Assembly: GCA_973895155.1 (NCBI GenBank)
Contig: OZ316896.1
Location: forward strand, 6,438,166 to 6,502,165
DNA length: 64,000 nt
Direction of reading: 5' to 3'
Source of the DNA: Marsupella aquatica
Lineage: Eukaryota > Plantae > Marchantiophyta
Shown here piece after piece: positions 7,501 to 57,589 of this stretch. A program made the position numbers and the translations under genes. Positions within the stretch are counted from its first letter, which is position 1. Each line of letters starts with the position of its first letter. The notes beneath the pieces are model-generated. The model was given only the letters and a program-made list of their open reading frames with translations. It made no database searches and had not been told where the DNA came from.

Positions 7501-9335
7501 GGTACTTATGGACACCTCCAAGCTCTAAGAATTCAAAGTGTCACACCATGGGGACACTTACTAACTTTGGCCAGTAGAACATCCAGGTGAAGGACATCTA
7601 GGTACTCATCCCTCCTTAAGCTGAATTCTCAGCCAGCTACAGAATTAGAATCATAGCAAAGGAGAATGTCAATAAAACGCAACTTTATTTCACATCATAA
7701 AGTTTTGGTACAAGTGGGACTTCAGTTCACAGCCCTTTTACACACACTCCTCTACTATTATCCAATACTAGGAGCATATGCTTTTTGGTCTTAGATTTCA
7801 CTCCACTTGGTAGAGTTCCACTAAGCAACAAGACATCTGTCCCCCAACACAAGAAATTTGTACAATACTTGAATACTTTTCAGCCACTCCAATCCAATCC
7901 TCACCATGAGCTGAGTATTATTCTCTTTTACTAACTCCTAATCAACCTCCTACTTTCATTTCACTTTGGTCCACGTGCTTCAAATCATAGAATCAAATTT
8001 GCAAAGAAAAATTGGAAGCTACAGACCTGCCTCCACCATCCAATTTCTCTCTCACCAACCAACCCTTGTTTGGTGCTCATGCTTTGCTAGAAGGTGTGCC
8101 TACTTCCCTTCTAATTTCACAAAATAAATCAACCAATTTGGTTATGCAAATGTGGCGCCAAAATATATCTACCATTACTGATTTTCTCTACTTCATCATC
8201 TTGCAAATTTTAATTTTGACGACTGTGACTTTCCTAACTCCACTTTGACCTGCCCTTCCATACCACCATCTTCTGCATCATGCATTTCACAATCACAACT
8301 ACTCAATCACCATCTTTTTACCAATCAATGGATTGTAGTAGCATTCATATGCTTGAATATGTGAAATCAAATTTGCAACAAAAAATAGAAAGGCACATAC
8401 CCCCTACACCATCTAATTTTTCTCTCATCAACCAGACCTTGATTGGTGCTCATACTTTGCCAAAAGATGCGCCTACTTCCTTTCTAACTCCAAAAAAAAT
8501 ATCAGCCAATTTGGTCAAGCAATTGTGGTGCCAAATTTTTTTGGTGTGACTTAGTTTTCTTACCATGAGTTTTCCACGATTTCCACTTCAACGACTTGTG
8601 ATGTTGACATTGTCACCTTCAATTGATTACCTTCAATCACATTATACATTAAAGTGAGTTCTCTTAGCATATTTCTTCCACGTAGATTTGTCTTCAAGCA
8701 CGCTCCTTGCAATCAGTTAATTTCTCAACCACCATACCTCACCAATCCATGGTGGGTTGAGTCTTCATTCATACCTAATTCCATGTCTCAATCAGGCTGA
8801 TCACCAACAGAGTAATTCTCTATATAATTTCTTTACTCTTTTGATTACTCTCTGCCTATTTTGTCCTTCTTTTGAATACCTTTGATGTTTTTAGAGTATC
8901 CCAACATAATAGAATACCTTGGGAAATTTTAGATTATCCTAGGTGTCATTTTCTGTGTGTATATGATTACCTTCATTCACATCAAAGTACCCTAGTTGAT
9001 TTTAGAGTACCCTGTCCAACTTTAGCTTACACTAGCCAATTTTAGATTACCCCGGTGATCTATTTTCTGACTATATTTGATTATCCTTGTCGTAGACGTA
9101 GTTTTGACTAAACCCTTAACTTTGGTAATTTTTTAACTCCCTAACCTGAACTCCAAAAGTGCTGAAATTTTTCCAGCTTCTTAATTTTGCTACATATAAT
9201 CTCTACTTTGACAACTTTTCATACCTTTTAGACTAATCCAGTCTACTGATAAAATACCCCAAGACGCCAATATAGTATAAAGTTGCAAAGATAAACAAAA
9301 AACTAGTCTAAGTGTCAAAGAGCCAAAGTGTTAAC
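4597..9335. repeat. Large diverged inverted repeat (arms ~4597-6440 and ~7030-9335)
   Basis: gttaacactttggctctttgacacttaga at 4597 is the reverse complement of tctaagtgtcaaagagccaaagtgttaac ending at 9335. Blocks match in inverted order throughout (e.g. ~5050 vs ~8700, ~6020 vs ~7710, ~6345 vs ~7085). No TSD seen. Confidence 0.85.
7103..7440. mobile_element. hAT-like MITE, 338 bp
   Basis: TIRs caatctattcattaaaag / cttttaatgaatagggtg (CA...TG ends). Imperfect 8-bp TSD ataggtat (7095-7102) / ataggtcc (7441-7448). Four internal aaagtgtacattt repeats. Absent at the matching position of the other inverted-repeat arm. Confidence 0.75.
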
Positions 9336-9739
9336 TTGCAAGATGAGAATGACCCTAACTTCCGAACTACATGTTTATTTTGCCTGAAATTTTTAGACTA
9401 GATTTCTCTATCTAAAAATTTATGTACTCACTGAAAATTCAGAGTTTTTCATGACCTACAAAGATTTGATTAAAATGCCGCCAAAGGGCAATTGCCACTT
9501 TACCTTAAATCCATCACTATTAACTTCTCACTCAATCTTCTAGGGACAAAGTTGACTAAGGCCTAAAGACTTACATTACACTAGAATTACACACAAAGAG
9601 GTAGCTATAATTCTTAATAAGCTCAAAAAATTAACTAACGGCCATGTGTGACACCTTTAAGGGAGCGCACATATACCCTGCCATCATGTTTGGTGGTTCC
9701 TTATGAAGGCCTCAATATCTCTAGCTATGAGCTTTTAGT

Positions 9740-10040
9740 GGGAGGTTTCCTTGCAGGTTTTCCCTGGCTTGCCTATTAAAGCACTTAGTAAAATTTGGCA
9801 CTCTCACAAGGAGAGAGTTCTTGTGGAGAGGTGTGTTTTGTTGTCATTGTAGTACACTTGTTTGAAGTGGAGAAAGCTCTTCGACCTCTTGTAAAATAGA
9901 GGTGGGGTTTTGTTGGTTCTAAGAAGTATTTTTATCCATCTTTTGCTTGCGGTCCCACCCTATCCTCTTTCATGGGAACAAATTGGTAGAAATAGAGATA
10001 TTTTGCTTGAGTTGTGTGCTACCAAGGAGTTACCCACCAC
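9740..10040. repeat. Inverted copy of the 6550-6850 segment
   Basis: e.g. aagcaaaagatggataaaaatacttcttagaaccaacaaaaccccacctctat (~6642) is the reverse complement of the sequence at ~9896-9948. Confidence 0.85.
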
Positions 10041-12579: not shown

Positions 12580-15500
12580 TAGCACCCGGCGCTGGTAAAA
12601 CTAGCGCCAAAGGCGAGGTGTTTTTAAAAGACACCAAAAAACTGAATAGGAGTAAATAATTATAAGAAACTCGTAGCGGTAGGAACTCTCCACGATTATT
12701 GCTAGCGTCGGGCGCTGTGAAGAGTCTATAATTTGTACCAGTTGCACTCTCGGAGGATATTTAATGAAGGGGGTTATGAAATGTTTGATCTCGGAACGCT
12801 ATTTAACTCAGTTATAATTAACGAAAACCTTTCAATAGCGCCTGGCGCTACTACTCTAATCCCACTAGAAAACCATCGTCTATTCCAGCCTCCTCCCAAT
12901 CAGGGTCTTTCCGGAAGCCATGTAGCTGCAAAGATCCATGACTGTTCCCGCAAGTTCACCTAATACCACAAAATCAGACGAAAACCAAAACATTTATGCA
13001 ACCACAACCCGGAAAGAATCCACACCAAAGAACCCTTAGAAAATTGGGAAGCGCCTGGCGCTAGCCAATATTGCACCTGAGAACACGTCTTCACAACTCA
13101 AACTTCAAGAATTCTGAAATAAAAATATAATAGTGACAGTATGTTTGAGGAGCGCCTAGCGCTAGTAAAACTTGAAAGGGCTTAAAATCGGCCAATTCAT
13201 CAAAATGGTTACATATTGAAACATTAAATGACGTATTTGAAGAAAACCCCATTGCTACCTATAAACTATCAGATGTTTCTGATGTGGAGCTTTCAGATCT
13301 GTCCTTGGACTCGGCTTCGTCATCAATGTACTTGCTTCGGGAAACATCATCTATATAAGGGTTCCTCATGAACTTCCTGTCTGCTCCCCTCTGAAGACGT
13401 AGACCTTTTGTTTCCCAACAAAGCATTCTAATATGTCAACCCTCCTAGCCGCATTTTCAGCGTATGAGGGCAAAACAAACGGCTTCTCAAGAGTGACAAT
13501 TACATTCCTAGCTAGTCTCCTCCGGAGTTGGAAATGCTTCCTCAGATTCCATTCTGACCTGATCCAGTAAAACGGAAAAAAATATAAGTTTAGGGGATAA
13601 GAGAGCAAGAACCCAGAATTGTCAACAACACTTGAAAGGATAAAGAAGCTTATTGGAAGAACATTACTCGTCTAATTCTTCGCTCTTCTCCGAAGAATCT
13701 TCCTCCTGGGTTTTCTCTGTGTCATCTCCGACATCTCCAGAGGTACCTTCCTCTTCATCGAAATCAAAGTTGAGAATAGAGCGGAGCCTATCTTTCTTTT
13801 TGCGACCACTTAAATTGGTTGCGGGAGGAGGCAATATCGGAACATGCTTGGGATCAAGAAGTTCTAAGAAAACCCTTGATGCGGTCTCAACAAACTCACG
13901 CCTATTTTCCAACCCAATCACGAAACAACCAAAAAAATCACCAACAATGAATGTGCTTCCTGAACCTACAGTCTAGTCAAGGACAATATCTCCAGGAAGA
14001 GTAAAAAGCTCTATCACCAACTCCATAAAACCAACCAAAAGACAGGCGTTCCCAGCAAAATCCAATTCCCGGCAATGATCTGTCTTCAAGGTTGGGAGCC
14101 CAATCAAGCTAGAGATCAAAGGATCTTTGCTTATTGATAGAGACTTAAACCTTGGATCCTTTGGTACCTTTCTCTTTGAAGAAGTCTGACAAAATATGTC
14201 TAGCTTGAGGGTAAATACCTGCACGCATCGCACACGTTTGGGTAAAATTATCAACCGACGGGTAATGTCTCGAGAACTACAGCAAAGACTAAATTAGCGT
14301 CGAGCGCTAACAATAAACAAGAGATGCAATGATCTGTACCTGAATATTGGTCTTTGCTCTGTACATGGGCATAGACATGACGACATTGTGAGAATTGACA
14401 CAATGGAACTTTTTTGACTGCTAGCATGCTAAAATGACCTGCGAGACCTGGTCATGGTCATCTGAATACAAGATCGCAAGCATGCCATCATCAGAAAGGA
14501 AAGGGTCCATCGCTTTGAAGAAAGAACTGGGAACTGTGTGGTCTGGTACATTCCACTTTGGAACTCGACAGTCCATGAGCGTAGGTTTAAGTCCAGTAGG
14601 AAGATAGATGAATCCTACATTGACACCAAACGATCTTTCCTTTCCTCCTCTGATGACTCCCTTTTCCCGGGAACCCGACTTGATTAAGTCCTTTCCCCAT
14701 TTCTCTGCATCAGTCACCCAATCTGGTTTCGCTGCTTTGTTGAAAGCAGTATCAATAAATTCTTGGATACTTGTTTCCACCATGCAATGCCTAGAAGATT
14801 TACTCTTGAAGGTTCCCACATCTCTCTGAACACCAGTTCCAGCGGCATCATCTCGGAAAGATAATTCTCCAGCTTGAATTGCCCTTTTCTTCTTCTTCTT
14901 TGTACCGGTTGCATCAAGAGGGATGATCTCTTTTGCTTTGTCAATTGGAGTTACTGGGTCTGATTGGGCACCGGTATTGGCTTTGGAAGGCTCTAGAGTG
15001 GCATCTACTTTTGTTTCGTTGGTTGCAGCGTCAGACTTTCTCCCACCTAAAGGAAAAAGAGCATAATTTATTCAATGCTGAGTAATAGCGTCAGGCACTG
15101 TCCAAACCAATTGAAAAAACAAGTTACCAATAGACATAGTCATATAGTAGCGCCTAGCGCTAACCAAAATGTGAAGCTACAAGCTGAATGACAACTTACG
15201 TTTTTTGGCGGACCGCGTTGAGGTACTCGGTGCCACAGCTTTGGTTTTTGCTTTGGCTCTGGGTTTGCAACTTCGGTCAACATGAACAACCGTAGTTTCG
15301 CACACCGTTTGCAATTCTGCCGCCGACTTGCTCACATCACCTTCGATTCCCTACTTTGTGTTGGACACAAACTTGGGAGGGACCTGAGACTTCAAGAGCT
15401 TATGAAATGCGTCTTTCTCAATGTCGCCAAATGGAGAGTCCCATCTATCGGTGTCCAAATACCAAGGACAATGAATTCTCTCCCATTCTGAGAGTTTCCT

Positions 15501-17840
15501 TGGTGGAAGACACCCTTCAGCGGGATACATTGAATACACGTTGGCCAGTATGTCTCCTTCGGGAACAACGATCCACTTTTGGAAAGCAACAGGGTATGCC
15601 CGAAAGTAATCTGGCTTCACAATCTCCATATGCATGAAGAAACGGTACAGGTATCGTTTGGCCCTCTTTTGATTCTTGAGGGTGTAGTCAGCCTTGTCGG
15701 GATACTTGGAAGGCCACATTGTATTAAAAAACTTGCCTTTCACAGCGTCCCCAAATTTCTTGAAATCATTTGAGACTATTTCAATAAGCGATTCAATCGA
15801 CTCACACTCCCACTCCTGCAACCGATTGGAGGGGACTATATCACTGACCTGGCGTAGGGAGGTTTGCAGCAAACCAATAGCGATTCCCTCCACAGTGTTC
15901 CAAGTTTGCCAGGTATGGCACCATTGCTTCACTGGATTGTCATTAACGCTCAGTGGATGGAAGAATTGTTTCCTCAGCTCCGGTTGCCCATTGTCGGTAC
16001 TCCTCAGCTTGGGGTCGAGGGCAGAGACAATGGTAAACAATCTTGCTTGATCCATTGTACAGACAACTGCATCCGGCTTCTTCTCTCTCTTATTCTTCTC
16101 TGTGAGGGGGTACATCTCGGCACATGTTTGCATGAAGTCCTCAAAAGCGAGGCTTAACAGAGGAGTGATTTTTGACAACTTTATAGCCCAATCCTTTGTT
16201 GCCTCCATCATCGCTGCATGTCTTTTTGAAATCTCTTCGGGAGACCAAGGTGTACCCTGAGCAACAGCATGTTCCAGATCCATCTTAAACTGTCGAGAAT
16301 AAGACTTGATCTTATTCTCACACAAGATGTACAAAAGCGCTTATTGAGGCATGTTTTTCGTATACCACGATCCCTTCCGTGTTTTCTGCATGATCTATCC
16401 AAACTTCTTGAAGTTTGCGGCGTCAATGATAGACTTGTAGTAATTGAGTTCATTCGACAGAATTCGGTTGATACGGTCTGCGTCAAGTATCCAAGAGGGT
16501 TTGACCACTGCCTACCCAAGCCTGAAAATGAGAGAGGGAGTCAGTAGCGCCCGACGCTAGTGAAACACTGTGATCATAGATTAGAATAGAAATATGTTGG
16601 AAGAGACACTTGCTAGTTAACAGCGTGCATCGCCGCCTCAATCTCAATCAAGGACCCCTTTTCTCCCTTGAATATTGTGCACTGGATGCGAGGATGGTAT
16701 TTCACATCATTCGAATTCTTCTTCGTGACGATGGACCATGCGTAGAGTCGATGGTTTCCATCAAACACAGAAAACATCTTATCCTACAAACTGCAAACGA
16801 CATAATGTGTGTTTGCAGTTTGCAGGATAAGATGTTTTCTAATTTGTTTGTTGTGGAGGACTTCGGAGATCACATCGTAAATAGTAAACGGAGATCCACA
16901 GCAAATAAATTAGAATCATCCATCTTCCCTCTCTTGCTCTTCGGGAATGATACAACGGGTTGTGCTTCAAGAGCTCGCAAAGTAGTGGATTGAGTCACTC
17001 GATGACTATACACAGATCGTGAAAACGAGCACTCAGATGTTTGCGAGGGAACGACCTCTCTGTGTCTGTTTCCACTAAAGCATTGAGAGGAGGAGAAGGC
17101 AGGGTCCATTGCTCGCACAAGGGCAAAGGAAGTACTGACGACCACCGCGCTCTTTCCATACCGTGAACGACAAAAACCCGTCACACAGCTTTGATCGTAC
17201 CGTACTTAACATGGGAAATAAGAAGAATCCAGAGCATAGAGCCATATACGCTAAGCAAACTGAACTCATGGCCTGGATCTGTGACACATGTTGTTGTCTT
17301 ATTCGACAACACCAAAGATGATCGATGTATCGAGGGTCATGCAACCTATAGTTACCGTTGAATATGACCGTTGAAAGGAAAACCTGGGAATATATCAAAT
17401 TCATTTTTACTCACCAAATAGTAGCGTTGGGCGCTAGTAATTTCCAAGGCCTGAAGTCTTCAATTTTGACGTCAATTGGAATTCAATATAGAGCCATAAG
17501 AGGCGTTAATACGCCATTATTTTCCCCAAAACCCGTTTTTCTCATAATGGCGTAGCAAAAAACAAAGCTTCTCAGACTTTTGAAGGCTCCTACTTCAAAG
17601 TTTACCATTGTATACGTTCATAATATGAATGAAATCAATATTAGCGCCTGGCGCTAATCATCCAGTGTCTCCTTTAGGAATTCGTTTTATGTCATTTGAT
17701 TTTATTAGCGCCTGGCGCTACACATAAATTGACGTTAGATGGACCCTAAACTTTTGGATTGTTATTAATAGCGCTAGGCGCTACACATAAATTGACTCTA
17801 CATGGGCCTCTACTTTTGTATTGTTTTTAATAGCGCCTAT
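12580..17840. repeat. Dispersed 15-bp palindrome TAGCGCCNGGCGCTA (cluster in the left part of the MULE)
   Basis: Copies or variants start at 12580, 12703, 12836, 13049, 13150, 14295, 15086, 15148, 16545, 17422, 17642, 17706 and 17769, with a half-site at 17831. Further copies at 41782, 41967, 46442, 46592, 3668 and 3743. Confidence 0.9.
13260..17120 (-). pseudogene. MULE cargo gene: ParB/Srx-like (DGNHR) N-terminal domain + beta-class N4/N6 amino-methyltransferase-like C-terminal domain; intron-containing
   Basis: Minus-strand translation gives DKMFSVFDGNHRLYAW (~16783-16736), the 327-aa ORF 15351-16334, VNVGFIYLPTG...FFKAMDPFLSDDGMLAILY (14421-14819), and MELVIELFTLPGDIVLD*TVGSGSTFIVGDFFGCFVIGLENRREFVETA (~14026-13880). 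Probable introns at ~16523-16613, 15048-15199 and ~14220-14339. Premature stops resemble CAG/CAA/TGG deaminations. Confidence 0.7.
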
Positions 17841-21340: not shown

Positions 21341-21847
21341 TAGCTCCCCTCTTAATTGCGAAGCGTCCCCGCGAGCACCATACTCCTCTTCCGTATAATA
21401 TTTCTTCAGCCGCTCCTGGTTGATGCGGGTGTTGAGTAGCTGTCCCTCCAATATTTTGAGTTGCACAGATCCATTTGGGTAGACCTCGTCTACAAGGTAG
21501 GGTCCCATCCACCGCGTGTGTAACTTGCCCGGGAAATGCATAAATCGACTGTCATAGAGTAGCACCAAATCTCCCGGCTCAATGGCCGCTCGTTGAAGGC
21601 GGGCATCATAGTGTAGCTTCCGTTTGTTTTGTTGTTGCTCTGTGCGCTCTAGAGCAAGTTCACGTATTTCTGTTAGTTGTTCCAACTGATGGATGCGAGC
21701 TACTGCACTTCTTTCCTCTCCGTCTCTCTCCTTGGTCAAGATTCGGATGGTGGGCACCTCAAATTCCACCGGTACAAGAGAATGTTGGCCAAACACAAGG
21801 AAGTAGGGGGTATGGCCAGTGGTGGTTTTGTGGGCCAAGTTGTAGGC
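21311..21847 (-). pseudogene. Integrase C-terminus of the Athila-like element
   Basis: AYNLAHKTTTGHTPYFLVFG...GKLHTRWMGPY (GPY motif). Joins DWDLKLLAATYA at 33137 across the aggc TSD. Confidence 0.93.
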
Positions 21848-22738
21848 TGTCGTGCTAGAGTGCATCGATGTACCAGTTGTGTCGTACCCGCAAACCTGTA
21901 TAGTGAATACACTTACTATCCTATCAACTGTCTACTTGCATGCAGAAACAGAAAAAGAAAAGCATCCTATCTACTAATAAAATGTGAGACAAAGTGAGTC
22001 CGGAGTAAGCGAATCTGTAATGCGCTTTACTAGAATGGGCGGAAAACCGTAGGGCAGCAATGTAAGCACTACTCAACGATGAAAAACCGACCGCCGTCTA
22101 TGTAATTGACGGGCACGCTATGCAACGATCATCTACGTGTAATCGACGAGCGCTGCCAAGCAAGAAACTAGAAACTATAACCGGATTCACTTCAGAACTG
22201 AAGTGAATGAAGGGAGGCCCAGAAGGTATACCCCCTGGATCCCAAGGGATGGGCTGCCTCACCCGATAATTAAGGCAATCTGTGAGGAGCCCTCCCAACC
22301 ACTGAAACCTCACCATAACAGACGAAACAGTGGTGTGCAAGATAGACTGATCCCAGATTAGGCAAACCTACCAGCTAACTAACCTAATTGACCATCTGGC
22401 CCTATCCGGTGCCGCCGTCTCCTAGGTGGCAGCGAGGCGGGTTAAATCCCGAGCCGCAATCCTAGCGCCGGTCGCTCACCAGTCGCTAAATCTACCTGGC
22501 AATGCCCTAAATTAATCAGGATTACTGCTAACTAGGATAGCCGCTCAAACCCGAGTACGTGGTTAAGCGCCAACAAGGGTTTGCATGACAGCTGTCGTGC
22601 TAGAGTGCATCGATGTACCAGCTGTGTCGTAACCGCAAACCTGTCTAGTGAATACACTTACTATCCTATCAGCTGTCTACTTGCATGTAGAAATAGCAAA
22701 AGAAAAGCATCATATCTACTCCCCCCCCAGTCGGTGAC

Positions 22739-25700
22739 CTACTGGCCTCGTCGACTGGTGGTAGGATGGTGTTGCCTGGTGCAAGCATGACAAAACCACT
22801 GACCTTCTGGAACGTTGTGCAATGGAGGTGTAAGACAGAACAAATGGAAATCGTTGTTACAACGATCACAGAGCAACATAAGATGAGCATCGTCAATGCG
22901 ATGACAAATTTGACAGGGATGATCCACAGGTGGAACCCAGTCTGCAGTGATTATAGTAGAATCAAGATTAGGTAGGTGGCATGGAGCACAATTCTTGAAG
23001 TGATCAGTGATGGTACGACCATCTGACCCTTCCAACAAAAGCACCCCAGACGCCCGGACTTCCTTGACTCGAAGAATGATCCGGCCTGCAGAAGTATCCA
23101 AGGTATCTATGGTCTGCCGCTGTAAGTAGACATAATCCCCAACCTCAAATTTGCGGATTTTGGGACGGTAGCTGCCACCACGGGTGTAAGCATAGCGTAG
23201 AGTATCCCGATGCTGAGCAATGCGAAGGTTTTGCATAGCCATAGGAATGACTCACTTGAACAAAGCTGCTCTGTTTGAAATGACCTGAGCCCAAACCTGT
23301 TCATTGTCTAGATCCACCACCTGGTCCATCTGCGGTGCGATGGCAGAGGGTGGTACCGGGTGTCAACCAAATAACAGGAAATAAGGAGAAAATGATGAAA
23401 GAGCTGCATGCTTGGACATACGATAACCCATAGCAATATAGGGTAATTGTAGATCCCAATCAGCCTTGTTTTTGGTAAGGCAAATCTTGCGTAGCCCTTT
23501 CTTACATGTTTGGACCATGCGTTCTGCAAGACCATCAGCTTGTGGATGATCGCGTGATGTCCTCCTGTGATCAATGAGCGCATGGTCAAGGAGGTCTTGA
23601 AACTCTCCTTTGAACTCTGTTCCCTGATCAGTTAAGCATTCAGCACATGCGCCAAACTGACTGAGAACCCGTTGTAGAAATGCCTGGCTGGTGCTGTGGG
23701 ATGACTTGTTACGCAATGGCACTAACTCAATCCATTTTGAAAAGTGCTCAATCATAATCATCACAAAGACATTACCCCTAGGTGTAACCGGTAATTCACT
23801 AGCCAAGTCACACGACCAACGGTAGAATAATCCCTGAATTGGCAAAGGTCGCAACTGCATTTGGCGGTCTGAGAATGAACTCTTTACTCGATCACATTCT
23901 GCACATCGAGCCAACACATCCCTCACTTGTGTGTACATACTTCACCGCGTGAAGTGGGGAGTAAGCAAGCTGTGGGTTCGTTTGATGCCAAAATGCCCCA
24001 ACTCTGAATGGATCTTCTGTATAAGTGCTGGTCTCTCCAGCACACGCGGGACCACATGATCCCCTGATGGGAATAGTCGAATCAAATGGTTACCCTTCCA
24101 TGCATAGCGGCGTGCTCTGTGCTGGATGCGGTCTCTCTCCATGAGGGTAGCATTAGAAGGGAATTCGCCTAGTTGTATGTAGTGTAGGGTTGCAGAATTA
24201 TTCCATATGTCCACAGATGTAGCCTCAGCAACCTGCACATCTGCTAATAGTGCCAAGCAAGCAGTAGCGGTTGGTTCTACGATAGCATCAAAATCTTGTC
24301 TTGCAGCCGTGTGATCTTCTGTTGTACTCAGAGGACTGCGTGACATTGCATCAGCATTCTGGTGGGTGACTCCTAGTCGATGAATGACTTCAAAAGTGTA
24401 CTCCTGCAAGATCAATGCCCATCTAGCTAGCTTACCGGTCAGTTTGTCATTGGTCATCAACCATTTAAGTGGTTGATGATCTGTAAACAATACAAACTTT
24501 TTACCATACAAGTATGGCCGGAAATGTACCACAGCCCATACCACAGCAAGTAGCTCTCCTTCGTAGGATGAGTAGTTGCTTTCTGCCTTGTTGTTACTGC
24601 GTGAAGCATAGGCAACAACATACTCTGGTTCACCATCATCTTGCTATCCCAGAATGGCTCCGAGGCCAATAGCACTCCAATCAGTGTGAAGAATGAAAGG
24701 GATCTTGAAATTGGGCCGACGGAGAACTGGGTGTGTGGTCAGTGCTGCTTTGATATTTTCAAATGCAGTCTGTCGCTCTGCAGTCTAGCACCATGGGGTG
24801 TCTTTTTTCAACAACTGATTCAGAGGGCTTGCAATGGTACTGAAATTCTCAACATGTGTGCGGTAGTAATTACACAGACCTAGAAAGATGCGTAGTTTGT
24901 TGACATCTGTAGGTGCCTTCATGTTGTTGATAGCCAGAACCTTGGCCTCCTCTAGCATGAGTCCATCTGGAATCACTCGGTGTCCCAAATAGATCACAAT
25001 GTTCACCCCAAATTCACATTTCTTGGGATGACATTTGAGATTAGCTTTTCTGAGCCTTTTGAATAGATCCTCCAAATCATCCATGTGCTGATCAAATGAA
25101 GGGCTGTGCACTACGACATCATCAATATAGCATTTGATGTGTGCTGCACCTTCCTTCACTATATCCATGACCTTCTAAAAGAAGATGGCTGCATTGACTG
25201 TGCCAAATGGCATGTATAGCCATTCCCACAACTTGTCACTGCCATGGAATGCAGTCTTCTTTCTATCCTTCTCTGCCACCACGATTTGGTTGAACCCTTG
25301 CCGCAGGTCTAAAATAGAGAAATATCGAGACTTCCCTAGCCCATCAAAGATCTCCTCTGGCGTGGGGACAGGATATCTATCCTGCTGAGTTACCTGGTTG
25401 AGTGCCCGATAATCCCCACACATCCTCTTTTCTGACCATAGCCCGCTGCTATCCTTCTTTGCTGGCATGACTGTGGGAGCAGCAAAAGGGGAACTTGAAG
25501 GTCTGATGAGACCTGCCTCATGTAGTTCCTTGCATCTAGCATCCACCAACTCCCACTCATGCTGGCTGAGTCGATGCCGCTTCCGAAATATCGGTGTCTC
25601 ATCGGTCAATGGAATTATGAATTCCATTATGTTGCACTTCCCTAAATCCTTCATAGAGAATGCAAAGCAATCTTTGTACTCATTGATGAGTTTCTTCATC

Positions 25701-25760
25701 CGTAGCTTCTGGGTTGCTGTCAGTTGTTCTCCCATGGTCCACTCAAAATTCTCAGCTGAA
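22739..25760 (-). pseudogene. RT, RNase H, DDE integrase and C-terminal PHD finger of the nested element
   Basis: RT CGDYRALN, LDLRQGFNQ and YIDD. RNase H WAVVHFRPYLYG..TDHQPL. Integrase HSELGH..CAEC, WSCDL, TDQGTEF and AERMVQ. PHD CQIC...CDRC...HLFC...WFCHAC (ORF 22739-23242). Confidence 0.92.
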
Positions 25761-25984
25761 GGTGGTGGCTTCTCTTTTGATTTGTCTTCCTCTGTATTTG
25801 TGGAAGAGCTATGGCTAAAAGCGTGTGGTTGAAGATTAACTGGGATCTCTCCCCCCCAAGCCACTGGTCGGAAATGGTAGGTACCAACCTGTGGGAGGTG
25901 TAAATCTGTGGGAGAAAAGATCTCAGCTGTAGCTACTGCCTTCGAGGTATGGTGTGCAATGGTGAGCATTTGAAAAGCCAAACA

Positions 25985-26935
25985 TGAGGATAGTACCCAG
26001 GAAAATCCTCTGAGGTCAAGCGCTTGGCCTAGCAATTTGTTGTGTTGATGTTTGGTAAGACTAGGGTGTTGAGTGCTCCCTGTCTGAAATCCCATAGCGC
26101 GCTCGCATTCCTCTGGGGATGGTGGCTGCCACTGTTGGGTGGCCTGTCAAAATACCAGCCCTGGACCTTCACCCCGAAATGCAAAGGAGCCAGGGAAGGA
26201 TAGTAGTGTGGGCCACACTGCCCGCGGTGTGCCTATGTAGTTGGCTGGAAAAAACGATGCACGTTCAGTCCGTACCACCGGGCGAGGACGACTGCCAGGA
26301 TCCAGAATTTGTTGTAACTGTTGTGTAGGCTCTGGTTTAGTCTCCAACAGAGCAAGCTTAAGAGTATTATGTGGTGCTAGGTTAGTCCACAAATTCCGTA
26401 AACGATGGGCATAAGAACCGCATTGAGCTGCGTCAATGAGGAATGGATCACCCAACAAGTGTTGAACAACAGCAAAATCTTTCAACACATCCGTTTGGGA
26501 ATCAAATTGTGCAGGTGCGTTCTCCAGGATGTAACCCACACATGGATTGCGTTGTTGTATCCAACCAAGTACCCGAAGTAGATCCTTGAACAACATTGAA
26601 CAATTATCCTGCAGACCTCCGCCTGTGCCTGCTGCCGAAAACCCTTGGCACTCCCATCCAACAACTACCAGATGTATAGGGCCTAGTAACTGGATGTGAC
26701 GTTGTTGGATAAGTTTGATATCTGGTGGTAAAAATGTGAGAGCAGACTCCCATGCTGTGGCAGGCAAGAGTTGGGAATACTGCTTACTGAGGGCGGTAAG
26801 GCGTTGAGGCAGCAATAGGCGTGCGGCAGCATCTGTGTCACAGTACACATACTTGTGTACCCGTAATCCACACTTGAGAGCGGCCTCAAGCCCTGTAGCC
26901 AATCCCCCAAATAATTCCACAAATATGATGCCTTT
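25985..26935 (-). pseudogene. DNMT3-like DNA (cytosine-5) methyltransferase domain inside the pol polyprotein
   Basis: Motif I FVELFGGLATG, motif II YVYCDTD, motif IV VGWECQGFS (catalytic Cys), motif VI YILENA, motif VIII AHRLRNLWTNL, motifs IX/X ERAMGF..G.T...KLLGQALD. One frameshift near 26147. Confidence 0.9.
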
Positions 26936-27380
26936 TGGTGGAGGGCACCACTGGATGGGTGTGTTGGATACTGGTGAAGCAATGTGGTAGGCATGTGGCT
27001 TATCCTGAGTGTGCGTTGCACAATACTTCAACGCTTTTGTCATGCGGACTTGTGCCTTCTCCAGTAACAACTGTGTATCTGATGAATACTCTGCCTTAAT
27101 AGCAGTCGCGACAGTAGTATCGTGAGCCACCAATGGGACTTGATCTGGTCTGTAATCTCCAGAGTCAAAAATATAATCCATGGTGTCAGATGTATGAGAC
27201 ACAGACGGGTACTCTACCTCATACGTGGTTGGAGGGATCAACTCCATCATGTTGGCCTCTTTGAACACTGTGTGTGACGGTGGGATTATTTGTCGGCCAT
27301 GCAACGCCAATGGGATAGTTCCCATTCGTTGCCCACCAGTCTCCCAATCAGGCCTATAATAGGCAATCTCTGTCCAGTTG

Positions 27381-29717
27381 TCAATCATGATACCTGGCGG
27401 AAATAGTACTTCTTGGCCAAGCAGTAGATCGTACAGTGTAGCCTTGGTCACAAGGCAGCGCATGTGAATGGTCAACGCGGTGTTGGACTTGGGATTGAAA
27501 CAAATTTGCATCGGCTTGGAGGTCTCTGCCAATCCTGTCTCCACTGCACCGCTGGCATCTGATGTTCCACTTTGTTGGTCGTAAGGCATCGCCAGTGATA
27601 CCCAAAGATTCAGCAAAGCGCTGACTGATGATGGCAGGTTGTGCCCCAGTGTCAAGGATAACAATCCTGGGTGTGGCCCCTTGGATAGTAATGGCAGATT
27701 GTCGATTATCAACCATTACTATTCCAACCTTTGCAGCTGCACGTTGGCTAGGTTCAACAAAAGGCAGATCCCTGGTGAGCATGTGGATATGCTGGGACCG
27801 ATCAATTATTGCCAAAGAACGAGGTGCAAGCAGTGTATCTAGTAATGATGATGGTGCAGGTTGTGTGGCTGTGACTTCAGTGGGAAACTGAACAGCTTCT
27901 GCCAATGCCGCTGGTGTGGTCACAGCAGTGTTAGTAGGTAAAACCATCAGACCAGGCCCACCTTGTGCTGATAGTGACATTCCTGCCCCTTGGAGCAATG
28001 CTATGACCCTTTGCGGTGTAATTCCCATCTCTTCACAAGAAAATAGTGGGGTCTGCATCAACCGCTTGGTGAACTCCGCACCCGATAGCGCTAGCCTCTT
28101 GTTGAAAACTTGGCTAGCATCCTGCCTAGATGCCGAGGCAGTGGATGCAGGTAGCACTTCAGTTGGTTGACCCCCTTCATTGGTATCCAAGGGCAACTGC
28201 CGATGGTTGTTAGAAATGATGTCCTGTTCTTCATCCATGGACATCTGACGGAAACTACTGGGCATAGAGCTCCTTGACTCTGCTTCTCTGGGTAGTGTAG
28301 TAGCAGCAGTCTGGTTGTCTCCTACGGCCTTATCCAGTGCGGATCTAGTAACTACATACCCATTCAAGTCATAAGGTAACGAGGTGCTTGGGTTGCTATC
28401 TCCAGTTGATGGTGAAGGAGCCTTCTGCAAAGCCTGTACCAACAATGCAGACATCCGATTGTCAAAAGCTTCAAATAGCTCTGCCTTGAGAGCGTCCATC
28501 TTTTGCTTGGATTTGGTTGCCTTGGCCTCATTCTTGTTACCACTGCTGGATGCTTGAGAGGAGTTGTCTGCAGCCTTGGTACTCGCTACAGGCTTCACAT
28601 TCCTCTGCGGTTGAGCAGGATAGGCCGACTGTTGTCGGGGTAACAATTTTTGTTGCCTCCGTTCTGGATGTGCTTGAAAGCACACTGACTCTACATGTCC
28701 AGTCTTGCCGCATGCAGAGCAATGCAAATTCTCTTTTGGAATGTTGCACTGAGGTGAGTTGTGGTCTAATGACCCACAATGATTGCACGATTGTATTGGT
28801 GCAGCCGCATTCACCTGCTTGGAGTTATGACCTCGCTGTCCCCTCTCAAACGGTCTTCCTTGCAATTGTCGTGGGTTGGCAGGTTGTCTTCCTTGCCCAA
28901 CTGAGGCCGTGTTGTCTGTGGTAGCAGCTCTGGTCTTTGGCTTGGGCGTGATCTCGTAGTTCTCATTCGCCCAGTTCATCTTCTTTGCAAGTTCATAGAC
29001 ATCCTGTAGGGTGTAATTCTTGTTGCTTCCTGAGAACAGGCTAGTAGTGACCTTGTTGTGCAGGTCTAGGTCATCTGCTTGCAAGGCCCGCAAGTACTTG
29101 TGCGCTGCTTCCCGATTAGTGCAACTCTCTGTCTCCTTTTGCAGACGCTCAATCCTTCGGTACATCATCTTTAGCGTCTCATCCTTCTTACAAATGATGT
29201 TGTTCAGCTCTGCCAACTTGATTGAGTTCCTCTCTGGGAATTCTTCTTTCAGTATGGCAAAGAAATCTGCTACCGGATCTGTGACTCCAAGATCTACCAA
29301 AGCCTCTGGGGCAATCCCTGTGGTGGCTGTTGCAATCTGAGCCTGCGTGAGTGTCACCGTGATTGGTGGTACTCCACCATTCTGCTTTGGGTCCTTTGCC
29401 CAATCTGTAATCTGGGCAGTGAGTTGCTGCTCTTCAGTAACCTTGATGGCAGCAATGTAGGCTGGGTTGGCTCTCATCTCCTGCCTTACCAGTGTATCTT
29501 CGTGCTGCTCATACGTGGCAAGTGCTTCTTCACATAGGTACCGTTTCAGCTGAATGAAAGCAAATTGTACATCATACTCAGATTTGTACTTCTTCTTCAA
29601 ATCTGCCATGACTCCAATAAACCATGCTTTGAATTCTCGTAGCGGGATGGTCCCTGGTCTGCCACTGAATGTTTGGTCACGGGTGTAGACCGGACCGTGT
29701 GATTGCATTCCTGCCAT
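27381..29717 (-). pseudogene. Gag + aspartic protease of the nested element
   Basis: 778-aa ORF with knuckles CNHCGSLDHNSPQC and CSACGKTGHVESVC and protease ILDTGAQ. Frameshift near 27560 into the next ORF. Confidence 0.88.
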
Positions 29718-30357
29718 TGTATAAGCTGGAAAGTTGAAAGAACCGTCGAATTCACCCTCTTCTTCGGATTCGGATTGTGTTGAGTACTCCTCCTGTCTCC
29801 CCCAATCTGAAGCGTGAAGAAAGTGGTAGCAGGACTAGAAAATGTGAGTCGTGCCCACTGTGTACGTGGGGCACGCCTACCCCAAGCTCGTGAGAATACA
29901 GGGGAGTGGGACTGGCTGCGCAACCAGTAGTGAGGTGATTCACTCATAAGCTACTGAGTATGTGTGAGATGGCAGGAGATGTCTTTAAACCAATAGGTAA
30001 AAACCGACTGTCCAGTGCAGACCATAGCGCACAATGGGGAGCAACAGTGGCAAGGGGGACTGTTCAATCTCCCGTAAGAAATTAACACCAAAATGTATGA
30101 CAATAAATTGATGAAAATGGTCTTTGGGTAAGATGATGAACAGGAAGTCAATGTGATGAGGAAAACCCTGAGGAGCGCCATGCAGCCCATCCATGGTGAC
30201 TCACACGATAATAGCGCCCACTTACCACACAAAATGTAGGGCAATCCTACTGATATGGGATATGGAGAATGTTTTGAGTACACAGCTTTAAGAAAGTCTG
30301 GAAATAACCTCAAACTGCTCTACCATATCCTAGGAGCAACAAAACTAGAAATGTAAC

Positions 30358-31349
30358 CTAGCCAACATAGGGATGAGGGCGCGGCTCATGCAACTCACGC
30401 TCTGCTCTCTCCCTCTCTAGAAGGTCTAATGGTAGAAGACCATGGTCTGGATGTGGGGTGCCGTTCCGGTACACATACTGTGGACGACCTCTAACTTGCC
30501 CGGTGGCAATAGGGGCTGGTAACTGTCCAGAAGTGCACCAAGGATATGGACTCACATCCAAGAAACTATAACCATCACCTGTATCATCCTCTACATCAAC
30601 CCGTCGCCAAACTAGATCAAAAGTCCAACGATGAAGTCGAGCAGACGGTGTACGAAGCCTGCTAGAAATCACCTCAAAGGCCTCCTCATGCCTCCAAAAG
30701 GGTAGCTGACCATCTGCTGATAAATGATCAACCCATGGGTGGCAGCTAGGTGCATCACGTACATACTGCTCCCACGCTGCCAATCCCTGTACAAAATGCT
30801 GAAGGAACTGGTGCACCAACTCCTCAAGGTCAGCTAGGGAGTACTCCACCACAAGATAGTGTGAAACCTGATCAGCAGTGACTGGATGATACGGGTGCAA
30901 GCATCGTGTGGACTGACGGACCACCCGTATGAGCAACTGATCCGTATCGCGAATGGAGAGTGTCACTGTCTCAAAAGCACGAGAACTGACTCCATAGTGT
31001 GGATAGAAACCCCTAGTACATAGATGAGCCACCGATCGGTCGCGAACAGAAACACTGGCATGGAAAGTAGGAGCCAAACTCTGTGCACAAAAAAGCTATG
31101 AGGAGTGTCAGGAATACCAATGCCCAAACCGCTGCAAAAGTGGTTGAGGACAGTACTCGGGTGAATCGATGAAACGACGAATCTGATACGAAATTGGTAG
31201 CTGCTGCTCTGCATGCTCAAAATCAGCCCAAGTATACCGCACTGTCCAGATCAGCAATCTGCAGTCGAACTCAGGTCAACGTCGGTGCTCCATGGTGCCT
31301 CCTGAGACGTAAGAGGATGGCCTGATGCGCATGCGGGCCTGTGTCACCA
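30358..31349 (-). CDS. Extra ORF upstream of gag in the nested element, unknown function (likely disrupted at its 5' end)
   Basis: 239-aa open stretch 30358-31077 with a globular-looking composition. Upstream ATG near 31349 and an overlapping ORF 30963-31220. Confidence 0.5.
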
Positions 31350-31559
31350 TGGTTGAGATTGCGGAGCTGACAAGCCCATCCACGCAAAATCATGGTGTCC
31401 ATTGCAACTATGTTAAGCCTTTCAATAGGTGCAATAACACTAGAATTCATAATATTCTCATAGTGCTCGTATCAGTAGTGAAGGATTCATAATATCCCAG
31501 TTAGATATACACATCTCCACAAAAAAACATTTTGTTCAATACCCACAACACTGAGTATC

Positions 31560-32300
31560 AATGCTATGTACCCAAGAACTGAACTACCGTGAGTATCAAA
31601 TACCCCATAGCTAAGATACTAGGGAGATTGAATATACATTCTAAGGTACATAGTGTGCATATCCGGTACAATGATCAATCTAAAGGTACTATGTGTACCA
31701 TTGAGGTACCGTGAGCATTGACTACTCAAAAATTGGAGTATTGTGTAAATTGAATGTCCAATCTAAAGTACGCAATGTGCATATCAAGTACAATAATCAA
31801 TGAGAAGGTACCGTGAGTAATCATTGAGTACCGTGAGTATTGAGTATGCAATCCCTAGGGTACTATGTATATTGAATGTGCATTCTAAAGTACACCATGT
31901 GCATGTCAAGTACATCCTCAAGTTTAAATGCAATGATATATAATGAGAAAAGGTACAAGATGTGCACTTGGTATCTTTCTGTGCAGGTGATCAAGTACAA
32001 TCGGTATGCCGGTACGACGTGATACGCTGGTACGCCTGTACGATGCGGTACACCTGTACGATGCGATACGCCTGTACGATGCAATACGCCGGTATGGTCG
32101 TACGGACGAGTTGAGTGCAAAAATATGGCGAAATTGAAAACTTGTCAAATCTGAAATCAATCTGAAATCCCGTCACCAAAAACCATCGAATACTTAAGTA
32201 CCCCTAGTACTTGATGGTACGCAGGTACAAGGCGGTACAAAGCGGTACAAGGCAGTACGCCGGTATGGTCGTACGGCCGCGGTACGGTCGTACGGACTGG
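31560..32300. repeat. GTAC-rich tandem/degenerate repeats in the 5' leader of the nested element
   Basis: 18-bp units cctgtacgatgcgatacg (~32005-32090), gcggtacaag units (~32220-32255), and many gtaccgtgag / agtac motifs. Confidence 0.75.
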
Positions 32301-33136
32301 CCAAAACCCGAAATGTCGAAAAATCAAAAAACCGTCGAAAATCAAAATTTCATCATGAAAAACCGTCGGAAGCTAAAGTAATTTTAGTCTTTGATTTGGG
32401 ACCCGAATCAGAAAACTAAGACCACTTTCTCAACCTAAAATCTCGAGAGAAATCCAAATATGCAATCTATTGAAACTTCTATCGCGCCAAAATCCCAGAT
32501 TTCAATGCACGACAGTTCTGAAGTGAATAAAATGTGAGACAAAGTGAGTCCGGAGTAAGCGAATCTGTAATGCACTTTACTAGAATGGGCGGAAAACCGT
32601 AGGGCAGCAATGTAAGCACTACTCAACGATGAAAAACCGACCGCCGTCTATGTAATTGACGGGCACGCTATGCAACGATCATCTACGTGTAATCGACGAG
32701 CGCTGCCAAACAAGAAACTAGAAACTGTAACCGGATTTACTTCAGAACTGAAGTGAATGAAGGGAGGCCCAGAAGGTATACCCCCTGGATCCCAAGGGAT
32801 GGGCTGCCTCACCCGATAAGGCAATCTGTGAGGAGCCCTCCCAACCACTGAAACCTCACCATAACAGACGAAACAATGGTGTGCAAGATAGACTGATCCC
32901 AGATTAGGCAAACCTACCAACTAACTAACCTAATTGACCACCTGGCCCTATCCGGTGCCGCCGTCTCCTAGGTGGCGGCGAGGCGGGTTAAATCCCGAGC
33001 CGCAATCCTAGCGCCGGTCGCTCACCAGCCGCTAAATCTACCTGGCAATGCCCTAAATTAATCAGGATCACCGCTAACTAGGATAGCCGCTCAAACCCAA
33101 GTACGTGGTTAAGCGCCGACAAGGGTTTGCATGACA

Positions 33137-36100
33137 AGGCGTATGTAGCAGCAAGCAACTTCAAATCCCAGTCAGTCTTGTGGGCCGATACCGTCTTGTT
33201 GAGGATCTTTCCCATAATTCCATTTGCTCTCTCTGTTAGCCCATTTGCTCGTGGATGGTAGGGGGTGGTCTTCCGATGGGTGACCAAGTAGTTCTCGGTC
33301 AGACGCGCAATCGTGTGATTGAGAAAGTGTGTGCCCCGGTCACTTACGAGTTCCAAGGGTGGGCCAAACCGTGTGAAAATCTGCTCGTACAAAAACCGTG
33401 CAGTGGTGTTAGCATCATCTTTGGCCGTTGCCCTGGCCTCCACCCACTTGGTGGAGTGGCTAGTACGATATAGCATTTTCTTCCCCTTCGGGTAATCGGA
33501 GTGAAGGGTCCGATGAAATCAATCCCCCACTTCTCAAATGGTGCAAGGGGAAGTATGGGCACCAATGGGTGTCGAGAGGAGGACCCTGGTTTTCCTTGGC
33601 GTTGGCAGGGGTCACATCTCTGAATGTACCGGTGGACATCCCGAAAAAGAGTTGGCCACCAATAGCCAGCATCTAGTATCTTCCTAGCGGTGGTTTCTCG
33701 TGCAAAGTGGCCACCGGCTTCCTCTTCATGTAGTGCCGCCATTACTGTACTTATCTCAGCCTCCTCTAAACAATGACGAAGGCGTCCATCCATCCCGTAT
33801 TTGTGAAGTACTCCCTTCACAAGCAAGTAGGGCCCCGTCTTGCGTAAGAACACTGCTGCACGTTCCGGACCCAACCGTAATGGAACGCTGGCCGTACGGA
33901 GAAATTCAAGAATTTCTCCATACCAAGTAGTGGCCTCCGTAGTCACCTTGAAGACCTCTTCATCGGGAAAACGATCATCAATCTCTTGAGAGTCAGATGC
34001 TCCCTCAATACGGGAGAAGAAGTCAGCATTGCTGTGACTCTTCCCGGATCTCACCCTTACCTCATAGTTGAACTCTTGCAACAATAGAACCCGGCGTGCA
34101 ATCCTACCAGACAAATCTGGCTTATTGACCATGTACTTCAAACTATTGTGATTCGTATGGAACACCACTTTGTAACCCAACAAATAGTGACGATATTTCT
34201 TGCAAGCGTAAATGATACCAAGAGCCTCCCTATCGGTGGGTGAGTAATTCTTTTCGGCCGGTGCCAACTGTCTACTAGCAAAGTAGATGGGGTGATCCCT
34301 CCCATCCTCATCCAGTTGGTTGAGGACAGCACCTATGCAAAATCCTGATACGTCAACATAAACATGGAACTCTTTTGCCCAATTGGGAGTAATGAGTACT
34401 GGAGCCTCTAACAATCTCTTTTTCAATTCGTCAAAGGCAGCTTGCCGGGAGGGAGTAGGTTCAAACTCACTTCCCTTCTTCAACATGGACGTGAGTGGCA
34501 TGGCCACCTTGGCAAAGTCCTTGATGAAGCGTCGATAGTAGCCAACGCACCCCAAGAACCCTCTCACTTCCTTGACATTGGTTGGAAAGGAGACGGCCAC
34601 CCACACGGCCACCTTCTCACGAACAACTTCAATTCCCCTAGCGGACACCTTGTGGCCCAACAGAATCCCCTCCTCAATTCCAAAGAAACATTTCTCAGGA
34701 TGGAGCTTCAAGCATGTCTCCCGGCACCACTGAAAAGTCAATCGTAAATGTTCAGGATGATTGACTTGCTTGCCATAGACAGCAAAGTCATCAATAAAAA
34801 TTTCCAAGAACCGACGCAAAAAGTCATGAAAGATGTTCATCATGAGTCGTTGGAACATCCCCGGGGCATTGCACAACCCAAAAGGCATCCTCCTAAACAC
34901 AAAAATTCCCCACTCCGTCGTGAACGCCGTCTTGAGTTGGTCCTCCTGCCGAATCCAGATCTGGTTGTAGCCATAGTAACCATCCAGGAAACTATAAATT
35001 TCCCACCTTGCTACCATGTCTAACACAGTGTCCGTGAAGGGGGTAATGGTCCTTCTTGGTGGCCTCATTTAATTTCCAAAAATCTTGACACACCGGTATT
35101 TTCACCTTGCTGTCTGGCCCCTTCTTCTTGGGCACAATGATAAGGGGTGATACCCACTCACTGTGCATGACTGGGTAAATGAAGCCCGCATCCAACAACC
35201 GATCGATCTCCTCCTTCACCATCAATGAATACTTGGGATTGAGCCGGTATTGGCGTTGTCGTACCGGCCGTGCTCCCAACATTAGGTCAATGCTATGCTC
35301 ACCAAACTCAGGAGGTACCCCCTTCAAGTCCTGGTGGCTCCACGCAAATACGTCTTGGTATTCTTTCAACAACTCCTGAATGGTGTGTTGATCTGTAGCA
35401 TCCAGCTTGTGGCCAAGTTGAGGGTCTTCCCTTCACCGACCACCACCCTCGTATATTGCTCTGGTCTAATTACATCCAACTTATTGCGGGTTTCTTCATC
35501 AAATGTTTCCTCCAAACGTGCAAGCCTCATCCCCCCGTACACAGGCGCGTCGCTCTCTTGCTGGTCTGGCCAGGGCCTAGACGGGCCATTGGTCACATGG
35601 CTCATCATCTCCTCTACGTCTGCCTCATTTGCAAATGCACGTAGCTCCTCTCTTAGGTCATCATCTAGGATGTCATTGACAAATTGCTCTCTTTGCTCAT
35701 CATCAAACATGATATTGTGGGTCTGCCGTCTCACCTCCTCGGAGTGATCCTCCTCCGCTGAGTGATCCTCCTCTTGAGTATCAGGGGTATGTAGTGGTTC
35801 AGCTTCCACATTTTCCACTTGCTCGTCTTTGGTTTCTTCTAGCATGATGCAACCTTGGCCAAGTGGCATCTCCACTCCATTCTCCTCTGGGGTAGTAGCT
35901 TGGGGACCAAAAACATCCTCCTTTGTAAGGTGAGAAATCAATTTCACCATGTATACTTCATCTTCATCTTCCTCTGAGGTGACCTCCGAATCGTATTGTT
36001 CATCCATTGATGTAGTTTCCCCTTGAGGTGACTCCGCTGTCCATGGAATGATGATAGTGGGGGTACCAAACCGAAACTGTCATTTTCCCCAATCGATAGT

Positions 36101-48667: not shown

Positions 48668-48980
48668 GGGTTGTGACGGTTGTTACCTGCGACGAACATG
48701 CTTCCTTTTCCCGGCGGGGGTGTTATTCCCTACGCAGGGTTTGTTAGTGACCGACTACTGAAACTTAAACCACATGAAGGATCGTGCAATCTGAAGTTCT
48801 GTACTATCTGTGGACGGTCCCTAAGTATGAATCGGCTTCTCCATGGAAGAAAATAAATTTCTGTTCGTATCTGTAAACTCAGTTGTCTGACATCCAGTTC
48901 CTCTTCGTGTTTCACAGGGAAAGCGTACCATCAAGGTTACTGGTGAGAAGTGAAGATCTCACAAGTTTGCGAATCGTGCT

Positions 48981-56739: not shown

Positions 56740-57560
56740 AATATGGAATTGGCACATCTCACCACTGGAAATGAAAATTTCCCATTGATGCCACCAGACA
56801 ACCCACCACACAGTCCAACTCTACAATATTCGTAGCTTTCCTGACACAGTTCCCTGCCTACCACCACCGTATGGAGCAAGATGGAGCGATGCTTGGCCTG
56901 CTTTTCTGGTGGGACTCCCTCAGTTAAATGGCAATGAAATGCTTGGTAAAAATGAAACACTTCTGATTGCTCAGGGTTTGGCTGTCCTCCAAAAAACTCA
57001 TTGTGCACAGCCAGCCAGGTGCATTGTCTGCCATGAATAGCAAGGTCCTGGAACCATTCTCATTGGACACTTCAATCATGAGTCGCCAGGTGCATTGTCT
57101 GCCATGAATAGCAAGGTCCTGGAACCATTCTCATTGGACACTTCAATCATGAGTCTCCAAGCTTTCTCAAAGGACTTTGTCTTTGCCTTCAACTCACAAG
57201 TAAAGATCAGGCAAAGAGTGTGGTAGCCCAATCTTTTATCAACCTTTTCGTCACTTTAAAGCTTACCCATGCACCTTCAAGTCTTCCACCAGGTTGCATT
57301 TGCCACAGAAGATTGACCCTGGACCCAGCTCCTTTTGTAGTCATTTTGAAGATATGAGGCCTGTCCTCCTTAGGGCCCTGACCAGGTAGTATATACCTCT
57401 GGAGATAGGGAATAATAATATTCTTTTGCATTCAAACGAGAAAATCCAACTCATCCTTCCCTTTTTGGTCTTGTCTCACGCTACCCAATAGGGTTGCACC
57501 CTTCTGCAGAGTAGCGCCACCATTAAGGATTCCCAAATTTTGGTTTGATCAAAGTCTTCC
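56740..57560 (-). pseudogene. MULE transposase remnant, family copy 3
   Basis: PYLQRYILPGQGPKEDRPHIFKMTTKGAGS...LEGAWVSF (57207-57431) and FFGGQPNPE...FHFYQAFH (56736-57008). Confidence 0.85.
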
Positions 57561-57589
57561 ATGTCACCAACATTTTCACAATAAGTCCC

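Follow-up and report, generated by a model that had tools for sequence, protein, structure and literature searches.

The 64-kb stretch of Marsupella aquatica DNA analysed here (GCA_973895155.1, contig OZ316896.1, positions 6,438,166-6,502,165; hereafter the window, whose positions serve as coordinates throughout) contains a Ty3/gypsy element with permuted end repeats. Read on the minus strand, the order is A1, internal region, G8 polypurine tract (PPT), B1, GC, A2 and B2. The initial annotation had described this A-internal-B-gc-A-B arrangement together with TG...CA ends, a 4-bp target-site duplication (TSD) and a near-palindrome of the two fused ends, and every coordinate proved exact on re-checking. 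A1 (32526-33136, 611 bp) is the 5' repeat and comprises an attachment (att) half site, TGTCATGC, a TATA-like box and R-U5. The PPT (22721-22728) adjoins B1 (22593-22720, 128 bp), the distal U3 of an intact 3' long terminal repeat (LTR); a GC spacer (22591-22592) separates B1 from A2 (21976-22590, 615 bp), the remainder of that LTR. A2 meets B2 (21848-21975, 128 bp), the displaced distal U3 of the 5' LTR, at a seam shared with relatives (21975-21976), where the right end of the cDNA was apparently joined to its left end. The 5' repeat thus lacks B, which stands instead at the far 3' end, and two whole identical flanking LTRs are absent.

The element starts with TGTCATGC and ends, at the terminus of B2, with GCACGACA; these TG/CA termini are flanked by the TSD GCCT (aggc on the plus strand), with its 5' copy at 33137-33140 and its 3' copy at 21844-21847 (both read on the minus strand). 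Both ends recur, fused and uncut, in the internal att palindrome GCACGACA-GC-TGTCATGC (22583-22600, no strand), whose core is kept in five families; GACAGCTGTC occurs once in the 64 kb. A1 and A2 are 97% alike and differ by 13 transitions and one 4-bp indel, an extra TTAA in A2 (~22267-22270) that is missing from most aligned contigs of other copies. B1 and B2 differ at 8 of 128 positions, four of them by transversion. The insertion lies in the integrase frame of a host gypsy element (19425-41139, minus strand), which it splits at the TSD (5' flank ...KLLAATYA, 3' flank AYNLAHK...). The host element has 1.9-kb LTRs (~41139-39224 and ~21340-19425, 98.4% alike) that start with TG and end with CA, and a 5-bp TSD, GTGAG, making it a useful control for normal LTR layout within the same DNA.

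All coding segments lie on the minus strand. Gag, with two Cys/His knuckle-like motifs recognised by eye, and the start of the protease occupy 27381-29834, and the frame shifts inside the protease, whose remainder is followed by a Dnmt3-like C5 cytosine methyltransferase (26147-27715; PF00145, E 0.006; DNMT3A the best match, E 1.7e-7). Reverse transcriptase (RT), RNase H and an H2C2 zinc finger follow at 23942-26146 with in-frame stops (closest solved RT Ty3, E 8e-20), then the DDE integrase core with a D-D(34)E arrangement (23363-23941) and the C-terminal part of the integrase with a PHD finger (22739-23251; PF00628, E 3e-11). The domain order is gag, protease, methylase, RT, RNase H, H2C2, rve integrase core and PHD finger; the protease-RT-RNase H-integrase order of pol by which Ty3/gypsy elements are recognised is present, as are the H2C2 finger and the DDE integrase; the TG...CA ends and the length of the TSD, within the 4-6 bp usual for such elements, also agree. 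A chromodomain after the integrase gave no Pfam hit in the element. Seven in-frame stops interrupt pol, so the window copy is dead. Upstream of gag, a 245-amino-acid (aa) open reading frame (ORF; 30358-31095, minus strand) had no Pfam, Atlas or relative match, and the 5' leader holds three spaced 122-bp repeats and short GTAC-rich repeats (31585-31914, 32012-32297).

The integrase catalytic residues are D45, D105 and E140 (ORF numbering), the spacing of 34 being one shorter than in Ty3 and prototype foamy virus. By sequence the integrase matches those of Ty3 and foamy virus, and Ty3 has the closest solved integrase; in a model of a relative's integrase (P0003, natural sequence, pLDDT 83.5), foamy-virus and Ty3 integrases were the best fold matches, with foamy virus at the top. 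Where Ty3 has SANHP and foamy virus TPYHP, the motif is mostly SRDHP (23366-23941, minus strand), and both this motif and the D(34)E spacing are common to most of 28 aligned relatives; these features may be relevant to internal cutting. A Ginger-transposase origin of the integrase was considered and set aside; GingerRoot has 6-bp TSDs and lacks HHCC (PMC6839031). The initial annotation had seen an HHCC-DDE integrase and no recombinase, and had named a tyrosine recombinase in intact copies as one finding that would refute its reading. The DDE integrase was confirmed, and no tyrosine recombinase was matched by Pfam in 57 ORFs of at least 60 aa in the element or in 50 of 97 ORFs of five relatives (most RT, RNase H and integrase ORFs being excluded from the latter); all copies are decayed, so a very broken recombinase gene could escape detection.

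A Dnmt3-like methylase was present in 17 of 17 relatives tested. Among named proteins the closest, at 92%, is from the liverwort Calypogeia fissa; Riccia, Klebsormidium and Closterium supplied further named relatives, and one relative is labelled Tetstr1. Klebsormidium nitens has two proteins that match the integrase, at 59% and 52%. The family's hosts are plants and likely algae.

The positions of the priming sites identify the unit that would be copied by RT. Directly after A1 stands a 12-nt primer-binding site (PBS), CACTTCAGAACT (32514-32525, minus strand), complementary to a stretch within A that is predicted to form the first 12 nt of the RNA (32738-32749, minus strand), 31 nt below a TATA-like motif. 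In the modelled transcript these first 12 nt pair with the PBS at a probability of 0.65-1.0, and a shuffle control reached the 13-nt threshold, the length of the A2 match, in 1 of 5000 cases (the A1 match is 12 nt). The second host described below has a different primer/PBS pair, with 7 of 12 positions changed and every change compensated; at least 10 of 12 positions are paired, with the primer below TATAAAA, in 17 of 20 copies. Two further pairs occur in the distant loci L093 and L095, so that the PBS covaries in three families besides that of the window, the primer lying ~30 nt below a TATA-like box in all four families, whose sequences differ while pairing is kept. In silico, this is a self-priming PBS of the Tf1/Tcn1 type. 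The initial annotation had placed a PBS-like site against A1: its position stands, and its nature is refined to a self-priming site (32525-32514), not a tRNA site. A tRNA-like TGGCGCG ~36 nt below A1 was rejected as a PBS because it lies away from A1, whereas the self-priming site adjoins it. At its end the PBS overlaps with half an att site, TGTCGTGC (32514-32507, minus strand). A DNA hairpin encloses the predicted start of the RNA, both in the window family (22185-22208, 32735-32758) and in L093 (~7230-7260).

Since A ends at the PBS and B begins at the PPT, the unit defined by priming is B-gc-A, not A-B, in agreement with the initial annotation, and if these sites are used as predicted, B-gc-A is the reverse-transcribed LTR. 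The predicted cDNA ends, AGTAG... and ...TTATT, lack TG and CA. B2 is closest to the B1 of its own copy (transversion distance 0.018, against 0.030 and 0.031 to other B1 or B2; 0/20000 permutations), which argues that B2 was remade from B1, and A1 is likewise closer to its own A2 than to other copies (0/20000 permutations). The A1/A2 and B1/B2 pairs behave as expected if remade each cycle.

Further copies, from the same organism or a close one, were viewed by aligning contigs of four sequencing runs (two studies, one possibly the source of the window) to both element ends. In four of four runs, contigs broke off into mixed sequence (agreement 0.48-0.55) at the base with which A begins (22590) and at the one that closes B (22593); the two runs reporting position 33136 show the same there. 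These varied flanks at fixed positions show that many insertions use the same TG and CA ends. Contigs ~86% alike span PPT-B-spacer-A. In two of the runs (X3 and X4), a joint between 22721 and 22178 is an A-B-type join in which A is short and five additional letters match the PBS start, together with one PPT base; these could be primer remnants at the seam, or a subfamily with another A end.

A scan of metagenome contigs supplied relatives in a second host: at least 566 loci, of which the 80 best matches (61-80% protein identity, few data sets) were used. Seventy-two of the 80 had enough 3' flank and reduced to 59 unique insertions, 25 reading PPT-B-A-B and 34 PPT-B only (three of the 34 disrupted). 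Both ends were available for 20 complete insertions, a rearranged locus (L055) being excluded; 11 read A-int-B-A-B and nine A-int-B (int, internal region). The repeats are unlike those of the window except at the att site. The initial annotation had proposed ordinary AB...AB LTRs in other copies as the sign of a one-off rearrangement, and in none of the 20 does B flank A1 on either side or AB stand at each end. The layout is a family trait, with an internal integration site conserved across the clade. The 4-bp TSD is exact in 9 of 20 and matches at three or more of four positions in 16 of 20 (permutation expectation 0.55 and 2.6); L062, tallied at 2/4 from a misplaced end, reads 3/4. Exact 5- or 6-bp TSDs occur in none of the 20.

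Allowing for decay, the B-A joint in these relatives is CGACA-NN-TGTCA, with a 2-bp spacer in 25 of 25 and GC or its C>T/G>A decay forms in 23 of 25. Of the 25 A-B seams, 12 are exact and 13 deviate by at least a few bases; among the 11 relatives that could be checked against their own A1, four have a ragged seam. The att spacer is thus constant in length while the seam varies, which fits putative enzyme cleavage at att and end-joining at the seam. The cut that the initial annotation had placed at CA-GC-TG inside the LTR accords with insertion ends that fall at the internal palindrome. Neither stops (p=0.44) nor CpG (p=0.08) mark the A-int-B copies as clearly older than the B-A-B ones (25 vs 31 loci, the three disrupted ones excluded). 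In five relatives B ends at the first of two 11-bp subterminal repeats; an alternative integrase cut there was considered and dropped because B1 of three copies shows the same 15-bp loss. A solo A-B with a 4-bp TSD, CAAT, lies ~3958-4430 below the integrase match of L029, as expected from A x A recombination.

More distant relatives (41-56% to the query) made up seven of eight loci found in a collection of prokaryote genomes. These are probably eukaryotic contigs binned there: the loci, L093-L099, are retroelement contigs, likely eukaryotic, in records titled bacterial or archaeal genome bins. A G-tract is followed at 56-108 bp by GACAGCTGTC in four of the seven, against a chance expectation of 0.05, and in two of these the site is a perfect CGTGACA-GC-TGTCACG; of the remainder, two end too early and L099 has a half site only. 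L094 reads PPT-B-gc-A-B with B1 and B2 100% identical. Overall, GACA-GC-TGTC is found 56-184 bp below a G-tract in five families with integrase identities of 51-80%. Protein search found no relative in viral contigs, and 12 exact matches to the att pattern in such contigs were treated as chance, because no RT or integrase lies beside them. L093 assembles as a circle with a 127-bp overlap, which repeat collapse explains and which was not taken as evidence for circles. In L095-L099 the reading frame continues past the PHD finger.

LTR elements and retroviruses are defined by integrating both RT-made ends, and circles with joined ends are usually deemed by-products. In the elements described here, the A-B seam is the exact junction of the two predicted cDNA ends, and the TG and CA ends are the halves of one palindrome inside the LTR. 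We consider it probable, with good confidence, that the DDE integrase cuts inside the upstream LTR, at the internal CA-gc-TG palindrome, and that host end-joining seals the leftover RT-made cDNA ends; a likely cut and a likely sealing of this kind would account for the split end repeat. RNA would start in the middle of A1, ~30 nt below the TATA-like box, and, as pairing and covariation suggest, self-prime at the PBS adjoining A1. Plus-strand synthesis from the G-tract adjoining B1 would then yield a cDNA with B-gc-A at each end. Joining of the cDNA ends would create the observed A-B seam, with joining first, as a 2-LTR circle, ranked slightly above joining after strand transfer. Judging by the ends and TSDs, the integrase would cleave after each CA, lose the 2-bp spacer and insert with a 4-bp stagger. 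The A-int-B copies may come from 1-LTR circles or later recombination, and presumably could not replicate since the downstream copy of R is missing. We see the case as evenly balanced for a wider claim: that a green-lineage Ty3/gypsy clade reaching from algae to liverworts no longer ties integration to its cDNA ends, the integrase working in every case as a site-specific endonuclease whose target is an inherited U3 palindrome, GACA-GC-TGTC, and that the joined-end (2-LTR circle) intermediate is the normal route.

Several results weigh against cleavage of a preformed circle, or against the reading as a whole. A symmetric circle predicts A-int-B-A-B and its mirror product A-B-A-int-B in equal numbers, yet the 20 complete relatives comprise 11 of the former and none of the latter (p=0.001). 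Of the initial annotation's circle opened within the LTR, the ends at the internal palindrome are supported, and the closed 2-LTR circle as the first step is a possibility. Only the upstream att appears to be cut. The integrase may act before sealing, the site may carry some mark, or A-B-A-int-B may collapse fast to A-int-B, which would turn the ratio into 11 to 9. In the window copy B1/B2 divergence exceeds that of A1/A2 (6.3% vs 2.1%, Fisher p=0.018), where a single cDNA predicts otherwise; the two values are similar in 11 relatives. Given this excess, and since alleles of both B1 and B2 are found among other copies, B2 of the window may have been copied from a second template. A TSD is lacking in L006, one of the 20 complete relatives, and two others match at only 2/4. 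The relatives are ~10% decayed, so that some ragged seams may be later mutations; short-read assembly can collapse repeats, and the sample comprises the 80 best of at least 566 loci, drawn from few data sets. Cleavage, cDNA, circle and RNA start are all predictions.

The asymmetry finds a direct explanation if cutting comes first and sealing later, a variant of the joining step that we regard as a real but lesser possibility. The integrase would act on linear cDNA at the att site of the upstream LTR, which is nearest a free end and completed first, and insert both CA ends, the free cDNA ends then being joined in the chromosome; the product would be the same and no free 2-LTR circle would be needed. 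Such an order explains the sole use of the upstream att (11 vs 0), allows B2 to derive from another cDNA, as the excess B1/B2 divergence of the window copy hints, and gives A-int-B directly from an upstream A end and a downstream B end. It would, however, leave a chromosome break at every insertion; 12 of 25 seams are exact, and the nine A-int-B copies could be collapsed A-B-A-int-B, which restores the 1:1 ratio of a circle.

A cycle of the PAT/Ngaro kind would begin with a full-length RNA that spans everything between the outer ends of A1 and B2; it would be copied and circularised on an internal B-A splint, and A1, B1, A2 and B2 would be inherited separately. The A1-B1-A2-B2 layout is the same (PMC4157794) and the B1/B2 divergence of the window copy would suit it, but the ORFs searched hold no recombinase, the TSDs are 4 bp, the predicted self-primer lies mid-A below a TATA-like box with the PPT adjoining B1, and B2 groups with its own B1, not with other B2; we judge this cycle improbable. 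Still more remote is the idea that an ordinary AB...AB element was altered by a one-off rearrangement or by autointegration, or was misassembled. Taken by itself, A2-B2 does resemble the TG...CA LTR of an ordinary element, and L029 contains a solo A-B with a 4-bp TSD. This explanation is already refuted for the families seen by the absence of B after A1, or of AB at both ends, from all 20 complete relatives, by recurrence of the layout in unrelated repeat sequences and in Klebsormidium, and by the contigs of four runs that span or stop at the same joints.

The layout itself has been mentioned once, in a 2018 figure legend and without a mechanism; the literature searched describes the proposed insertion route as the normal one for no such element. 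For KnitGypsy-Dnmt3 of Klebsormidium nitens, a DIRS-type repeat layout with Gypsy domains is given by de Mendoza et al. (2018, PMC5890265; legend of Fig. 4c), the DIRS layout being A-coding-B-A-B in the legend of Fig. 1. That element resembles the one in the window in its Gypsy domains, the Dnmt3-like methylase in Pol and the DIRS-type A-B-A-B repeats, so the initial annotation went too far in knowing of no described Ty3/gypsy family of this kind; on its termini, TSD, priming sites, att palindrome, PHD finger and mechanism the text consulted is silent. A 2026 preprint mentions Gypsy-DNMT3, giving no repeat structure in the portion available. Literature searches, whose coverage stops short of subscription journals and Repbase Reports, listed no paper on an internal att site or permuted LTR in a Ty3/gypsy element.

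Among other known systems, PAT/TOC/Kangaroo and Ngaro elements share the A1-B1-A2-B2 split direct repeats, and the PAT group has a methyltransferase domain (PMC4157794). Unlike them, the window element has a DDE integrase, a 4-bp TSD, a PPT, a self-priming PBS and a Ty3-like RT, and no recombinase was found in it. PAT/Ngaro elements are not known to have an integrase-type TSD, and the 4-bp TSD of the window element differs in this. In bacteria, IS3/IS911 transpose by copy-out paste-in, in which insertion by a DDE enzyme proceeds from abutted ends joined across a short spacer; unlike the window element, these are DNA transposons with no RNA step, and the junction is made by the transposase. Tf1/Sushi and plant Tcn1 chromoviruses likewise use no tRNA primer, the 5' end of the RNA being predicted to pair with a PBS at the 5' repeat; they have ordinary LTRs and a chromodomain, in contrast to the split LTRs, PHD finger and methylase seen here (PMC6317226). 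Foamy-virus and HIV-1 integrases are reported to cut CA/TG palindromes at 2-LTR circle junctions in vitro (PMC1180852, PMC1905944), and the window element similarly combines a DDE integrase with an internal CA..TG palindrome that it would cut. In retroviruses the palindrome forms where the cDNA ends are joined and belongs to a side route, whereas the one described here is inherited inside U3, off the cDNA ends, and marks every insertion seen.

In this clade the integrase site has apparently moved inside the LTR, and an enzyme of retroviral type would routinely open an internal palindrome. These elements would offer a natural system, with a 10-bp target, for the disputed question of whether joined-end circles are integration precursors, and they suggest a route to split direct repeats without a tyrosine recombinase. 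LTR finders will misplace or miss such elements in bryophyte and algal genomes.

Elsewhere in the window, 48954-54396 (plus strand) contains exons of a translation-factor-like GTPase gene, a candidate eIF5B by motif, with an exon of 132-bp tandem repeats at 49109-50063. A large inverted duplication with internal repeats, 73-82% alike, spans 4597-10040. Two related stretches with long open frames, 75-78% alike, lie at 14421-16340 (minus strand) and 57409-58770 (plus strand), and near-perfect hairpins at 16769-16840 (72 bp) and 60644-60681 (38 bp).

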